Source: an uncultured Candidatus Rokubacteria bacterium
Lineage (GTDB): Bacteria; Methylomirabilota; Methylomirabilia; Rokubacteriales; DASRDR01
Length of the DNA: 64,000 bases
Reading direction: 5' to 3'
NCBI GenBank assembly: GCA_963805625.1
Contig: CAWDVE010000013.1
Location: 480,001 to 544,000 of the forward strand
Shown here: positions 34,467 to 40,836 of the stretch, in pieces
Position numbering within the stretch: the stretch's first letter is position 1
Layout of the letters: each line of letters starts with the position of its first letter
Notes under the pieces: generated by a model
Databases searched by the model: none
Told to the model about the DNA's origin: nothing
The model's input: only the letters and a program-made list of their open reading frames with translations
Program-made: the position numbers and the translations under genes

Positions 34467-35036
34467 GTGCCCGACAAACCCCCTCCGCCGCCGCGCCGGT
34501 TCGGCTACTACGAGCGCCTGACCCGCGCCCAGCAGCGCATCTACCGGGACAGCGACGCGGTCACGAGCCTGCGTCTTCCCGGCGCGGCCGAGCTTCACCC
34601 TCGCGTGGCGGCGCTCGACGCGTCCCTCATCTCCGAGGACCGCCTCGCCGTCCAGGTGGCGTCCCAGATGCTCTTCACCGCGCTCACCCAGGCGTTCGGC
34701 ATCGGGCCCTGCCGTCTGGAGGTGCTGGCCGCCCGCCCACACGGTCGCTGGGGTGAGCTCCAGGGCCTCTACATCGAGGACCGCCGTTTGCCTCGCGTCC
34801 AGCTCTGGATGCGCACGGCGCGTCAGCGGCGAGTCGTGGCGTTCCGGACGTACCTCAGGACTCTCCTCCACGAGCTCGGCCACCACGTCGACTACCGGTA
34901 TCTCAAGCTCGCCGATTCCTTCCACACGCAGGGCTTCTACCAGCGCGAGTCGAGCCTCTTCCACCAGCTGGTGCCGGACGCCCGCGAGGAGATCCCGACC
35001 CAGGACCCGGCCCCGACCGACGACACCGAACGCTAG
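34467..35036 (+). CDS. small HExxH zincin-like (SprT-like) protein
   Basis: TLLHELGHHVDY with downstream SFHTQGF. Confidence 0.7.
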   Translation: MPDKPPPPPRRFGYYERLTRAQQRIYRDSDAVTSLRLPGAAELHPRVAALDASLISEDRLAVQVASQMLFTALTQAFGIGPCRLEVLAARPHGRWGELQGLYIEDRRLPRVQLWMRTARQRRVVAFRTYLRTLLHELGHHVDYRYLKLADSFHTQGFYQRESSLFHQLVPDAREEIPTQDPAPTDDTER

Positions 35037-36471: not shown

Positions 36472-36711
36472 CTACGGGAACACGCAGCGAAAGAATGGAG
36501 CGGTGACCGTGGAATCTCCCGTCATGCGGTAGTACGCGGTCACGTAGCCGAACCGGTCTACCTCGTAGTTCGTGACCTCCGGGTGGGCCCGCATGCACTC
36601 CTGGGCCCTCGTCTGCAGCTCGCTTTGGCGCTCTGCGCTCACTGTCGCCGATGTCGCGCAGGCGTTCAGAAAGAACGGGAGCAAGGTCAACGCCAGGAGT
36701 GTGGGCTTCAC
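36472..36711 (-). CDS. small lipoprotein (79 aa)
   Basis: AAGGAG SD, GTG start; MKPTLLALTLLPFFLNA-C lipobox; two more Cys. Confidence 0.75.
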   Translation of the reverse strand: MKPTLLALTLLPFFLNACATSATVSAERQSELQTRAQECMRAHPEVTNYEVDRFGYVTAYYRMTGDSTVTAPFFRCVFP

Positions 36712-36771
36712 GAGTGGTCTCCTTTCCCCGAGGTGATCGATCGAGGGGGATGACACCGCCAGGTGCAGTCA

Positions 36772-37234: not shown

Positions 37235-38905
37235 TTACATCAGGAAGTAGCGGCGGTTCATCGGCAGGTCGTCGTCGGGGATCGGCGGGAGCGGCTGGCC
37301 GTCGATCTGGATCTCCGCCGAGCCGGGGTCGATCTCGATCCGTGGATTCGCCTGGTTGTAGAGCATGTGGCGCTTGGCCACCTGCCGGGTTCCCGCCACC
37401 GGAATCGCCCGCCGCCGGGTCCCGAGCCGCCGGCGAAAGCCGCCGGCCGCCGCCGCGGCGGAGACGAAGTCGATGCTGAGGCTCGCGGCCGCCAGCCCGC
37501 TGCCCCCCCAGTGCGGCGCGTAAATCTGGGGCTCGGTCTGCGCGACGGACGCGTTGCCCTCGCCGAGGGCGCCCCAGGCGGGGTAGCCGCCCTTGATCAC
37601 CAGCTCCGGCTTGACCCCGAAGAACTCGGGGCGCCAGAGGACGATGTCGGCGCTCTTCCCCGGCTCGAGCGACCCCACCCACCGGTCGACGCCGTGGGCG
37701 CGCGCGGGGTTGATCGTGTACTTCGCCAGGTACTGGAGGATCCGCGGGTTGTCGTGCAGCGGGCGCTCGGCGCGCATGCGCTTCATCTGGTGCGCGAGCT
37801 GCCAGGTCCGGCGGATCACTTCCCCGATCCGCCCCATCCCCTGGGAGTCCGAGTTGATGATGCTGATCGCCCCCAGCTCGTGGAGCACGCTCTCCGCCCG
37901 CATCGTGGAGTCGCGGACGCGGTCGGCGATCATCGCGCGGTCGCTGGGCACCCGCGGGTTCATGCCGTGGACCGACCACATCATGGCGTGATGCTCCGCC
38001 ACCACGTTCCGGCCATACGGGATCGTCGGGGTCGTCGACGAGCCGATGACGTGGCCGATCCCCGCGATCGCCAGGATGTCCGGCGAGTGGCCGCCGCCGA
38101 TGCCCTCCACGTGGTACGCGTGGATGCTGCGCCCGGCAATGGCGGCGACCGTCTCACCGAGCTCGCACGACTCGTTGATGCCGTCGGTATGCATCGCGAT
38201 CTGGACGTCGTACACGTCGGCGACGGTGAGCGCCTCGTCGACGATGCTCGGGTACCCCGCGTAGTCCTCGTGGACCTTGAGCCCACAGGCGCCCGACTCG
38301 ATCTGGCGCTCGAGCGGGGCCGCGGTGTAGCTGGCCGCCCGCCCCAGCACGCCCAGGTTCACGGGAAAGCCCTCGAAGGCGAGGAACATGTGGTCCAGGT
38401 TGAACGCGGGGTTGTCGTTGAGGCCGCCGGTGATCAGCGTCGTCATCCCGGCAGCCAGCGCCGACGGGATGAGGCGCGGCTGGACCAGGTGGACGTGCGT
38501 GTCGATGCCGCCGGGCGTCGCGATGAAACCCTGCCCGTAGACCGGCGCGGTGTTGGAGCCGATGAGGAGATCGGGGTTGTCGACCACGTCCGGGTTGCCG
38601 GCCCGGCCCACACCGACGATCACCCCGTCCTTCACGCCGATGTTCGCCTTGAACACGCCGAGCACGGGATCCAGCACGATCACGTTCGTGACGATCAGGT
38701 CGAGCTCGCTCGCGGCCGGCAGCTCGGCGCTCATCATGATGCCGGTGCGCAGGGTCTTCGCCCAGCCGCGCAGCACCTCGTCCCCGTAGCTCGACTCGTC
38801 CCGCTCGATCCGCGCCAGGAGGTCCGTGTCCCCGAGACGCACCCGGTCACCAGTCGTGGGGCCGTAGCGCGCCGAGTACTCGGGGCGGCTCAGCTCACCG
38901 GCCAT
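37235..38905 (-). CDS. ureC: urease alpha subunit-like protein (divergent)
   Basis: YGPTTGDRVRLGDTDL, DTHVH, LKVHED, MHTD, YHVEG.GGGH, SDSQGMGR, KYTINPA. Confidence 0.9.
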   Translation of the reverse strand: MAGELSRPEYSARYGPTTGDRVRLGDTDLLARIERDESSYGDEVLRGWAKTLRTGIMMSAELPAASELDLIVTNVIVLDPVLGVFKANIGVKDGVIVGVGRAGNPDVVDNPDLLIGSNTAPVYGQGFIATPGGIDTHVHLVQPRLIPSALAAGMTTLITGGLNDNPAFNLDHMFLAFEGFPVNLGVLGRAASYTAAPLERQIESGACGLKVHEDYAGYPSIVDEALTVADVYDVQIAMHTDGINESCELGETVAAIAGRSIHAYHVEGIGGGHSPDILAIAGIGHVIGSSTTPTIPYGRNVVAEHHAMMWSVHGMNPRVPSDRAMIADRVRDSTMRAESVLHELGAISIINSDSQGMGRIGEVIRRTWQLAHQMKRMRAERPLHDNPRILQYLAKYTINPARAHGVDRWVGSLEPGKSADIVLWRPEFFGVKPELVIKGGYPAWGALGEGNASVAQTEPQIYAPHWGGSGLAAASLSIDFVSAAAAAGGFRRRLGTRRRAIPVAGTRQVAKRHMLYNQANPRIEIDPGSAEIQIDGQPLPPIPDDDLPMNRRYFLM

Positions 38906-39293
38906 GAGGCCTCTCCGGCGTGCCGGCCTCCCGGTGGCCGTAGCCGCCCTCGCGCACGCGCGCCAGGCCCTCGGCGAGCCGATCGGGCGTGGCGGCGCCC
39001 TCGGTCAGCCGGTTGAAGCCGCGCACCGCCCGCTGGCCGCCGTACGCCACGAGCCGCACTGTCCGCGTCTCGCCGGGACGCCAGCGCACCGAATCGCCCG
39101 CGGGCACGTCGAGGTGCATGCCCCAGGCCCGGCGCCGGTCGAACACGAGGCGGCGGTTGATCTCGAAGAACGGAAAGTGCGAGCTGATGAAGATCGTGTG
39201 ATCCGAGGTGTTCGTCACCGTCACCTCGGCCGTGGGCCGGCCCGCGTTCAGCGGAATCGCGCCCTCGGCGAACAGGATCTCGCCCGGCTTCAT
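38895..39293 (-). CDS. ureB: urease beta subunit-like protein
   Basis: MKPGEI, VTNTSD, SHFPFFEIN, LDVPAGDSVRW. Confidence 0.9.
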   Translation of the reverse strand: MKPGEILFAEGAIPLNAGRPTAEVTVTNTSDHTIFISSHFPFFEINRRLVFDRRRAWGMHLDVPAGDSVRWRPGETRTVRLVAYGGQRAVRGFNRLTEGAATPDRLAEGLARVREGGYGHREAGTPERPHGR

Positions 39294-39613
39294 GCGGTCC
39301 CCTTCCTGCCCGGTCCGATCGGCCGCTCCACGTGGAGGATCCGGGTTCCGTCCCCGAACAGGCACTCGAGCTTGACGGTACCGACGAGGTCGGCGACACC
39401 TTCCAGCACGTCGTCCTCGGTGAGAACGCTCCGGGCCGCAGTCACCACCTCCTCGTAGGAGGCTCCGCCGCGGGCGGCCTCGTGCATCTCGTCGCAGATG
39501 AGAGCCAGGGCCTCCGGGTATGTGAGCCGCCAGCCCTTGGCCCGCCGGCGGCGCGCGAGCTCCGCGGCGGTGAAGATCGTCAGGCGATCCAGCTCGGTCG
39601 GTGTCAGGCGCAT
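39290..39613 (-). CDS. ureA: urease gamma subunit-like protein
   Basis: MRLTPTELDRL, YPEALALI, FGDGTRI. Confidence 0.9.
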   Translation of the reverse strand: MRLTPTELDRLTIFTAAELARRRRAKGWRLTYPEALALICDEMHEAARGGASYEEVVTAARSVLTEDDVLEGVADLVGTVKLECLFGDGTRILHVERPIGPGRKGTA

Positions 39614-39664
39614 GGGTGCACTCCGTCTTGCCGGTCCTGCGGCTCGGCGGTTACGGGCGCCGGC

Positions 39665-39693
39665 ATGATAGACGACGGGTCCCGGCCAGACAA
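39665..39693 (-). promoter_or_regulatory. sigma70 promoter of ureABC
   Basis: TTGTCT-17-TATCAT. Confidence 0.55.
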
Positions 39694-39699
39694 CCGCGG

Positions 39700-40836
39700 T
39701 CAGACGTCGCGCGCTCCGAGCTTCAAGAGCTCGCCGATGGCGGCCGACGCCTTGAGTCCGGAGCCCGTGAGAACCAGCACCGTCGTCTCCCCCGGCCGGA
39801 TGGTTCCGCTCGCCTGGAGCCGGCTCAGTCCCGCGGCGGCCGCGGCCGCCGTGGGCTCGACGTAGAGCCCCCGGCGCGCCAGGTCACGGAGCGCCTCGAC
39901 GATCTCCGCCTCGTCCACCGCGACCACGGCCCCGCCGCTCTCGCGCACGGCGCGCAGGACCTCGGCCACCCGCGTGGGCTTGGCCGACGCGATCCCCTCC
40001 GCCACCGTCGGAGCGATCGAGGTGGGGACGAGGTGCTCGACGCCCGCGAGGAAGGCTGCGTGGTAGGGCGCGCAGTTCGCTGCCTGGACGCCGAAGAGAC
40101 GCGGAACCGCGCCGATCTCGCCCCGGCGGAGCAGCTCGCCGAAGCCGCGGTCGCACCCCAGCACGTTGCTCCCATAGCCGAGGGGGACGACCACGTTGTC
40201 GGGCGGCCGGAAGCCGAGCTGCTCCCACAGCTCGTAGGCGAGCGTCTTCACGCCCTCCACGAAGAAGGGCTGCCAGTTGTGGCTCGCGTAGAAGATCTCG
40301 GCGCTCTGGCGGAGCGCGGCGTCGGCCACGTCCTGCCTGGAGCCCCTGATGGTGACGACGTCGGCGCCGCACGCGGCGATCTGGGCGATCTTCGGGTAGG
40401 ACGCAGTTTCGGGCACGAGGATGCGGCACGAGAGGCCGCTCCTCGCGGCGTACGCCGAGAGCGAGGCGCCGGCGTTCCCCGACGAGTCCTCCAGCACCCG
40501 CCGGATGCCGCGGCTCTTGAGGTAGCTCACCATCACGGTCATGCCGCGGTCCTTGAACGATCCCGTCGGCATCGTGAACTCGAGCTTGAAGAGGACGGCC
40601 GCGCCGCCCCAGTCGCCCGGCACGAGCGGCGTCCAGCCCTCACCGAGGCTGACGGCATCCTCGGCCTCGACCAGGAGCGCCTTCGCGTACCGCCAGACCG
40701 AGTGGCGCGAGGTCTCGATCTCCTCACGCCCGAGCCCCGGCGCCGGCCCCAGGTTCAGGTAGTGGCCGTTATCCGCGCACCACCGCGCCTCGGTGAGCGG
40801 ATACGTGCGTCCGGTGGAAGGGTCGACGTAGTTCAC
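39700..40836 (-). CDS. threonine synthase-like PLP enzyme (fold type II)
   Basis: LGEGWTPL, PTGSFKDRG, DSSGNAG, VEPT, LTGSGLK; start GTG at VNYVDP. Confidence 0.88.
   Translation of the reverse strand: MNYVDPSTGRTYPLTEARWCADNGHYLNLGPAPGLGREEIETSRHSVWRYAKALLVEAEDAVSLGEGWTPLVPGDWGGAAVLFKLEFTMPTGSFKDRGMTVMVSYLKSRGIRRVLEDSSGNAGASLSAYAARSGLSCRILVPETASYPKIAQIAACGADVVTIRGSRQDVADAALRQSAEIFYASHNWQPFFVEGVKTLAYELWEQLGFRPPDNVVVPLGYGSNVLGCDRGFGELLRRGEIGAVPRLFGVQAANCAPYHAAFLAGVEHLVPTSIAPTVAEGIASAKPTRVAEVLRAVRESGGAVVAVDEAEIVEALRDLARRGLYVEPTAAAAAAGLSRLQASGTIRPGETTVLVLTGSGLKASAAIGELLKLGARDV

Follow-up and report, generated by a model that had tools for sequence, protein, structure and literature searches.

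The minus strand of a 64,000-nucleotide stretch of DNA from an uncultured Rokubacteria bacterium (referred to as the window) carries three intact, overlapping genes, ureA, ureB and ureC, which were identified by open reading frame (ORF) analysis between positions 39613 and 37235 and which encode a urease-like enzyme, UreABC. Judged from its sequence and those of its relatives, UreABC is likely a self-assembling two-metal amidohydrolase that is predicted to prefer an N-substituted urea (R-NH-CO-NH2) over urea, and we assign a probability of roughly 0.5 to this reading. Urease is the textbook example of a urea-specific enzyme that needs a four-protein nickel-delivery machine. The clade of the window enzyme dropped these helpers together with their docking surface and kept the catalytic core, and two questions become testable with three genes: the carbamylation and metallation of a urease site without UreDFG, and the loop that sets urea specificity.

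Several observations were counted in favour of an N-substituted urea. Three of the four acceptors of the amide hydrogens of urea are changed and fixed clade-wide, and the variant is kept beside a second, canonical-type urease in seven genomes. UrtA was found in none of 19 genomes with the variant only, compared with 20 of 23 UreD-bearing genomes. The iron urease of Helicobacter mustelae kept its pocket, and helpers were lost there without pocket change. The sister subfamilies have diverse flaps, whereas the canonical Rokubacteria ureases have a single one; ureide genes adjoin 14 of 102 clade loci versus about 1% expected; and a short-loop member is located in a non-ribosomal peptide synthetase (NRPS) cluster of Streptomycetaceae.

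Active site and substrate pocket

The ureA-like gene (39290..39613, minus strand) encodes a gamma subunit of 107 amino acids (aa; TIGR00193, 103.5 bits with a cut-off of 82.3) and the ureB-like gene (38895..39293, minus strand) a beta subunit of 132 aa (TIGR00192, 117.3 bits with a cut-off of 90.3). The ureC-like gene (37235..38905, minus strand) encodes the catalytic alpha subunit of 556 aa and was analyzed using alignments, profiles, AlphaFold and Foldseek. The AlphaFold model of UreC, built on a 34-sequence alignment, reached a predicted local distance difference test (pLDDT) value of 81 and a predicted template modelling score (pTM) of 0.88. Foldseek with this model revealed a template modelling (TM) score of about 0.9 to solved ureases; the 39 best rows were all ureases, and a comparison with the ESM Atlas returned urease-alpha clusters only. 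Its alpha, beta and gamma subunits and six metal ligands place the enzyme in the urease structural family (PF00449; UreABC fold). UreC passes the broader subfamily model NF009686, its score of 628.4 bits is below the cut-off of 680 of the urease equivalog TIGR01792, and databases label its homologues 'urease subunit alpha'. Taken together, the enzyme is urease-like in its predicted chemistry and in structural family, yet by its pocket, its lack of helpers and docking residues, and its position in the tree it falls outside the canonical ureases.

The three subunits, the fold and the ligands are common to UreABC and the canonical nickel ureases of Klebsiella aerogenes (2KAU/1EJW), Sporosarcina pasteurii (4UBP) and Helicobacter pylori (1E9Y/1E9Z). 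The metal ligands H137, H139, K210, H239, H265 and D353 correspond to those of UreB from H. pylori in the alignment, in agreement with an earlier note on this DNA that all of them are retained, and they are invariant in 120 of 120 homologues. The catalytic relay is also shared with canonical urease: H212, the D214-H313-R329 triad, the invariant G270 and D353 are equivalent to canonical His222, Asp224-His323-Arg339, Gly280 and Asp363, and UreC has the canonical catalytic residues of EC 3.5.1.5.

The differences to canonical urease are located around this core. A shortened loop (residues 159-168, TGGLNDNPAF; 38402..38431, minus strand, from alignments) replaces the canonical Ala170 loop. The stretch from G153 to L170 comprises 18 residues compared with 28 in canonical ureases, exactly ten fewer, where the earlier note had given about ten. 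This 18-residue loop is present in all 120 top homologues and in 21 of 21 GTDB loci, two sets that overlap and whose members are kin, whereas all 15 canonical Rokubacteria copies and nine of nine canonical representatives have 28 residues. The mobile flap and switch II (residues 304-331; 37913..37996, minus strand, from alignments) are remodelled and contain W310 instead of Met, V312 instead of the flap Cys, G314, R323, M325 and A327, with H313 kept; in addition, Ala366 is exchanged for Gly and FGG for RGW. The substitutions read in the earlier note (MMWSVHGM, SQGMG and RGWAK in UreC and SHFPF in UreB) could each be verified in the sequence or alignment, and most relatives in the clade have RGWGK and SH(F/Y)PF. 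The Ala170 loop, the flap Cys-His-His and Ala366 of the canonical nickel urease pocket are absent from UreC. W48, N165, G242, W310, M325 and G356 are invariant in all 141 clade rows, and R46 is present in 120 of 120 homologues and 19 of 21 GTDB loci; presumably the R46-W48 segment faces the pocket of the neighbouring subunit.

Ten pocket residues are listed for K. aerogenes urease (PMC7433671, excerpt). Seven of them are kept in UreC (H212, E213, D214, G270, H313, R329 and M357), and three are altered: Ala167 is removed with the loop, Cys319 is Val and Ala363 is Gly. These are three of the four named acceptors of the amide hydrogens of urea (list in PMC7433671, excerpt), and their replacement is fixed in all 120 homologues and all 21 GTDB loci, with V312 present in 119 and 20 of them, respectively. 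The remodelling of the site described in the earlier note is real, but the loss of the Cys and the exchange of Ala for Gly are weaker signs than it had implied. The Ala contacts with urea are made by backbone carbonyls and the flap Cys is assigned a steric role (PMC7433671, excerpt), so that the pocket changes alone do not exclude urea.

UreABC could also be a true urease that is independent of helpers, probably slow and possibly non-nickel, and that recycles intracellular urea. In this case the loop deletion would admit CO2 and metal without UreD and would be unrelated to substrate size. We regard this explanation, which has the retention of all catalytic residues on its side, as a serious possibility that is second to an N-substituted urea.

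Proposed mechanism

For the hydrolysis of an N-substituted urea we propose that Lys210 would be carbamylated by CO2 and that the site would load two divalent ions (Ni, Fe, Co, Zn or Mn are candidates) without a UreGFD tunnel. Other amidohydrolases with a carbamylated lysine load metal without helpers of the UreGFD type. The carbonyl oxygen of the substrate would be bound by metal 1 and His212 and attacked by the bridging hydroxide, as in urease, and Asp353 and the Asp214-His313-Arg329 triad would protonate the leaving nitrogen. Ammonia would be released, and decay of the carbamate would yield R-NH2 and CO2. The substituent R may be located beside metal 2, where the deletion of the Ala170 loop and the Ala-to-Gly change would provide space, in a putative pocket lined by the invariant residues Asn165 and Trp310 and by the N-terminal residues Arg46 and Trp48. 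Arg46 and the hydantoinase and carbamoylase neighbours described below are weak hints of ureido acids derived from cyclic ureides (hydantoins, dihydropyrimidines, allantoin), and ureido acids of cyclic-ureide breakdown are our leading guess for the substrate. Guanidino compounds and biuret, which the earlier note had also named, found no support in the analyses run.

The next structural neighbours after the ureases in the Foldseek search are dihydropyrimidinase-like proteins of the hydantoinase/dihydropyrimidinase family (TM about 0.5). In contrast to the window enzyme, to which they are about 15% identical, these proteins have a single subunit type, cyclic substrates and no urease flap. The carbamylated-lysine two-metal site of hydantoinases is formed without dedicated chaperones. 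Methylenediurease acts on substituted ureas and has urease-like subunits, and its likeness to the clade is one of description. Methylenediurease / isobutylidenediurea hydrolase is listed as a nickel enzyme (PMC8540861, excerpt).

Helper independence

In H. pylori, binding of UreD depends on UreB Tyr543 and UreA Glu177, Val332 docks into UreD, Phe334 gates the nickel tunnel and Asp336 is a conserved acidic residue of this tunnel (PMC10121161, excerpt). In all 120 clade homologues the position of Tyr543 is occupied by Ala, Val or Ile, that of Val332 by Arg or His and that of Phe334 by Met. The position of Asp336 is acidic in none of them and is Glu in 2 of 21 GTDB loci. The canonical Rokubacteria copies have Tyr, Leu/Val, Phe and Glu at these positions in 15 of 15 cases. 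In the window, Arg72 of UreB stands in place of the Glu that binds UreD in H. pylori (UreA E177); this residue is replaced in all 52 clade loci (of 102) with a parsable UreB motif, and all 15 controls retain it. The loss of the UreD-docking residues across the clade is new here.

Queries for accessory genes found no match at any of the 102 clade loci (913 kb) or the 12 sister loci, compared with matches at 24 of 28 canonical controls. They gave no match in the window either, as the earlier note had stated for ureD, ureE, ureF, ureG and nickel transporters, NicO being the sole transporter family searched. The source genome (7.27 Mb, 99.9% complete, 6.3% contaminated), whose nearest named relatives are Rokubacteria/Methylomirabilota, holds a single copy each of ureC, ureA and ureB. 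Profile searches revealed no match for UreD, UreF and UreE_C in this genome, none over the cut-off for UreG and none for NicO, the other nickel transporter families not being searched; the UreD, UreF and UreG as well as the docking residues of canonical nickel ureases are thus missing. A single weak UreG match was rejected, as it is HypB and sits in a NiFe-hydrogenase cluster, which indicates that the cell does handle nickel. This cluster (contig C13:446000-449500, locus L026) contains genes for the small and large hydrogenase subunits together with hypB and lies about 70 kb from the urease-like genes; it is a possible nickel source.

The absence of ureDEFG therefore holds for intact genes in the whole genome, but is refined by a 79-codon ureD relic on contig C10 (1126602-1126838, plus strand; locus L214:1103-1339), which stems from the 3' end of the gene. 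The relic shares 50-54% identity with the C-terminal end of UreD from Rokubacteria and matches the intact UreD frame of a sister genus (G183). A shorter ureD relic with a stop is present in G191 (matches in two of the five genomes searched). We infer that the lineage once had, and then lost, the canonical operon.

UreABC of Bacillus subtilis hydrolyses urea. Its structural genes, like those in the window, are found without accessory genes (PMC6737895, excerpt). The iron urease UreA2B2 of H. mustelae is active without accessory proteins, and Helicobacter UreA2B2 exists alongside a complete nickel urease (PMC6737895, excerpt), so that co-occurrence of two enzymes does not prove a different substrate. 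These helper-free ureases favour a true urease in the window as well, all the more as UreA2B2 (3QGA) resembles the clade in having no equivalents of E177, D336 and Y543. Unlike the clade, UreA2B2 has kept the long loop, the flap Cys-His-His and SQAMG, hydrolyses urea and has fused gamma and beta subunits. UreABC shares the missing accessory genes and the degenerate docking residues with the UreA2B2 type, but not the canonical pocket. Helper independence, which is well supported for the clade, does not require pocket changes, and the canonical pocket of the H. mustelae enzyme speaks against a true urease with the pocket of UreABC.

Co-occurrence was counted for the variant and for canonical-type second copies of ureC, which are about 50% identical. 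The variant was detected in 14 of 200 Methylomirabilota genomes (the source genome included, one partial); it is the sole ureC found in eight of these and accompanied by a second copy in six. One Dehalococcoidia genome also holds the variant and a second ureC of about 50% identity. UreD or UreF adjoins the second copy in six of the seven double carriers, and UreD lies on the contig of the 50% copy in five of the six from Methylomirabilota. Among 29 selected genomes, UreD was found in none of nine from the window genus and in 20 of 20 with the 50% copy; it was also found in 7 of the 17 genomes behind the GTDB loci, a set overlapping with the 29. When 301 Dehalococcoidia were searched, 23 matched, and UreF was present in 0 of 11 short-loop-only genomes versus 12 of 12 with a 50% copy; the 12 copies have SQAMG (7) or SQGMG (1) or were not parsed (4). 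UrtA over the cut-off followed the pattern given above and was found in neither of two genomes with neither the variant nor UreD. The compared genomes are kin, and these counts represent two or three replicate patterns and not a statistical test. They support that the clade is decoupled from UreDFG and UrtA. The missing UrtA link in every variant-only genome argues against a true urease, and so does the finding that two of nine genomes of the same genus (98% complete) have neither enzyme.

A separate branch of urease-like proteins

The best 120 of 7988 scored homologues are 81-94% identical to UreC and 541-568 aa long. In GTDB we found 23 clade loci with 74-99% identity in Methylomirabilota, Chloroflexota, Planctomycetota, Nitrospirota and Pseudomonadota, and a clade-specific DNA pattern revealed 111 metagenome stretches, 79 of which are listed with flanks. 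No clade member was found on plasmids (best match under 60%). Quick, unrooted trees of 50 and 33 chosen rows, drawn with a midpoint root, place the MMW(S/G)VHG proteins in one branch (SH-like approximate likelihood ratio test, SH-aLRT, 99-100) within a larger short-loop set apart from canonical ureases. The split between short-loop and canonical proteins has an SH-aLRT of 100 with the loop, flap and docking columns removed. UreC of the window is about 48-52% identical to canonical copies and falls outside their branch; the distinct urease-fold clade postulated in the earlier note was thus recovered and is conserved. No published description of it was found in full-text literature, a search outside which supplements and most subscription papers lie.

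The missing helper genes and a relative whose ureC is split into two frames (L025) would also fit a catalytically silent or decaying urease copy. However, the ratio of nonsynonymous to synonymous substitutions (dN/dS) of ureABC is 0.03-0.14 in eight of eight pairs, the ligands are invariant in all 120 homologues and the identity of 74-99% extends across at least five phyla, and we consider such a copy highly improbable. The split gene of L025 (8001-9670) originates from a Gammaproteobacteria bin and is accompanied by a fused ureA-ureB of 240 aa.

Sister subfamilies in Dehalococcoidia and elsewhere have the ten-residue deletion but differing flaps. Two paralogues with unlike flaps, 376/558 identical (67%), occur within one genome (G356), in contrast to a single flap in all 15 canonical copies from Rokubacteria. 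A distant short-loop member with a 24-residue loop was found inside a conserved NRPS cluster (NRPS-condensation-phosphotransferase-ureAB-ureC-oxygenase) on four Streptomycetaceae plasmids and is possibly a tailoring enzyme in cultured strains. Both the diversification of the flaps and this member are hard to reconcile with one small substrate and hence with a true urease. As a tentative and rather doubtful extension we suggest that the urease scaffold radiated widely a second time, in the short-loop branch, whose subfamilies of chaperone-free two-metal enzymes would each decarbamoylate a different N-substituted urea. The MMWSVHG subfamily would be a ureido-acid hydrolase in the cyclic-ureide catabolism of soil and subsurface bacteria, and other members would take part in the tailoring of non-ribosomal peptides. 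In that case 'urease' would denote a single specialisation within a larger enzyme family, and ureC detected in the environment would in part reflect activities other than ureolysis. N-carbamoylputrescine is unsupported as a substrate of the MMWSVHG subfamily, since PF04371 (agmatine deiminase) was found neither in the source genome nor among the subset of neighbours that was annotated.

Some relatives showed further peculiarities. The sister loci L194-L204 belong to the Dehalococcoidia genomes G356, G400, G324, G414, G341, G306, G428, G233, G448 and G372. Their genes are often wedged among very large repetitive proteins, with a tandem duplication in G414, and one of the two divergent paralogues of G356 has HEY for HED as well as SQGFG. 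The NRPS-cluster loci (L057, L208, L209, L210) are located on plasmids of Streptomyces, Embleya and Kitasatospora and contain a stand-alone condensation domain, a 2-oxoglutarate (2OG)-Fe(II) oxygenase, ureAB-ureC without accessory genes and a 528-aa protein without Pfam or NCBIfam match. Intermediate ureases with a loop of 24-25 residues and SQGMG were found in L055 (G127) and L056 (a Klebsiella plasmid); both keep the UreB Glu, accessory genes are present in L056, and their branch adjoins canonical ureases.

Gene neighbourhoods

At unannotated loci genes were called using a simple codon-score script, which missed some genes. No partner gene is conserved clade-wide (102 loci). The clearest context consists of a carbamoylase (M20), ureABC, an ABC transporter, an HP0310-like deacetylase, a CobW GTPase and a D-hydantoinase. 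This arrangement is present at L022, L068, L097, L112 and L114 and partially at L071, L082, L088, L099, L107, L118 and L127. A divergent dihydropyrimidinase and a carbamoylase are located at L075 and L084, and a cytosine-deaminase-like gene at L091 and L131, the former also with a dihydropyrimidinase-like gene. A hydantoinase/dihydropyrimidinase or carbamoylase gene was found at the 14 loci mentioned above, which represent three to four branches and about two to three independent arrangements, and the hydantoinase/dihydropyrimidinase family at 10 of 102. The expected rate of about 1% per 16 kb was derived from the gene counts of the source genome, which has three dihydropyrimidinase-like and two carbamoylase-like genes, and ignores the clustering of catabolic genes.

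The amidase family is represented at 14 of 102 loci, and amidases, formamidases and amidohydrolases are frequent neighbours. They would fit a hydrolase whose substrate is not a urea but a carboxamide, a carbamate, an imide or a related C-N compound of the R-CO-NH2 type. The retained half-site would need only one carbonyl and one leaving nitrogen, and jack bean urease has been studied on formamide, acetamide and N-methylurea, according to a title cited in PMC7433671 (excerpt). However, amidase-type genes are abundant (six amidase-signature matches in the source genome) and often lie on the opposite strand, and no specific partner is conserved, so that we consider this explanation improbable.

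The neighbour genes point both ways on the substrate, and a number of observations weigh against an N-substituted urea. No ureide partner was detected at 88 of 102 loci, the background rate does not account for catabolic-gene clustering and the compared genomes are kin. In the best operon a carbamoylase already adjoins ureABC, and plain urea would be the end product of an allantoin-type route. An agmatinase-family gene is located directly downstream at three of 102 loci in one branch; it is closest to guanidinobutyrase, which releases urea, and favours plain urea as substrate. The neighbours in the window itself name no substrate. Furthermore, the backbone-carbonyl contacts of Ala170 and Ala366 could still be supplied by Gly356 or by one of the short-loop residues, and the loss of the canonical operon in the lineage would fit its replacement by the variant. 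In the source genome UreABC is the only urease-like enzyme beside two urea-forming, agmatinase-family genes, and neither urea carboxylase nor allophanate hydrolase was found over the cut-off. The guanidinobutyrase-like neighbour, the lost operon and this gene content likewise argue for a true urease.

If the substrate differs from urea, the clade would represent new nitrogen-cycle biochemistry in abundant uncultured lineages of soil, groundwater and sediment, and counts of ureolysis based on ureC would be inflated by the variant, given its frequency in Methylomirabilota. If UreABC is a true urease, a helper-free enzyme would be of practical use, and genomes without ureDFG should not be scored as urease-negative.

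Transcription signals and surrounding genes

A sigma70-like promoter candidate, TTGTCT-17-TATCAT, is located upstream of ureA (39665..39693, minus strand) and has 9 of 12 consensus matches; one such site was found compared with 0.1 +/- 0.3 in shuffled sequences. A GGAG candidate ribosome-binding site (39621..39624, minus strand) seven bases before the ureA start is conserved in the relatives L003-L006 and L008. The promoter candidate is common to three of eight aligned close relatives (L003, L004, L005), in which the -10 hexamer and five of six -35 bases are kept and the spacer varies. It is absent in L006, L007, L010 and L013, where ureA starts at most about 50 bases after a threonine-synthase-like gene. 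The three genes and the promoter of the earlier note were thus found, but their stand-alone arrangement with a promoter of their own holds only locally. A search for terminators at the ureABC locus found none. The GC content of ureABC is 0.707 compared with 0.701 in the window. In 15 runs of expression data at most 0.11 of the sequence words were present, and four RNA runs contained short contig pieces of relatives only, without strand, level or silent control.

The threonine-synthase-like enzyme, a pyridoxal phosphate (PLP) enzyme, is encoded upstream (39700..40836, minus strand, start approximate) and was assigned by profile match and synteny. Its gene is syntenic in close relatives, in some of which it is probably co-transcribed with ureABC, and was not found at distant clade loci. 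Other upstream genes in the window genus encode a Rieske oxygenase, MarC, TauD-like and DoxX-like proteins and a molybdenum subunit of the xanthine dehydrogenase family. The gene of the Rieske oxygenase alpha subunit (window 46161-45539, minus strand) is split over two frames and is missing about residues 29-205 of the 383-aa copy of L005, owing to a recent deletion or an assembly fault. A 94-aa lipoprotein-like ORF lies downstream of ureC (36472-36756, minus strand); neither this ORF nor a 189-aa ORF (34467-35036, plus strand), which is conserved in six related loci, has an NCBIfam or Pfam match at the thresholds used.

A second ureA on contig C17 of the source genome was rejected, because the DNA match to the canonical operon is that of its acetyltransferase-like gene. 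A gene that we take, from its motifs, to encode such an acetyltransferase lies between ureA and ureB in canonical Rokubacteria operons (L211:7617-8231, L213:7150-7770). Likewise named from motifs, the genes flanking the ureD relic on contig C10 presumably encode an efflux-adaptor-like protein and a DegT-like aminotransferase.

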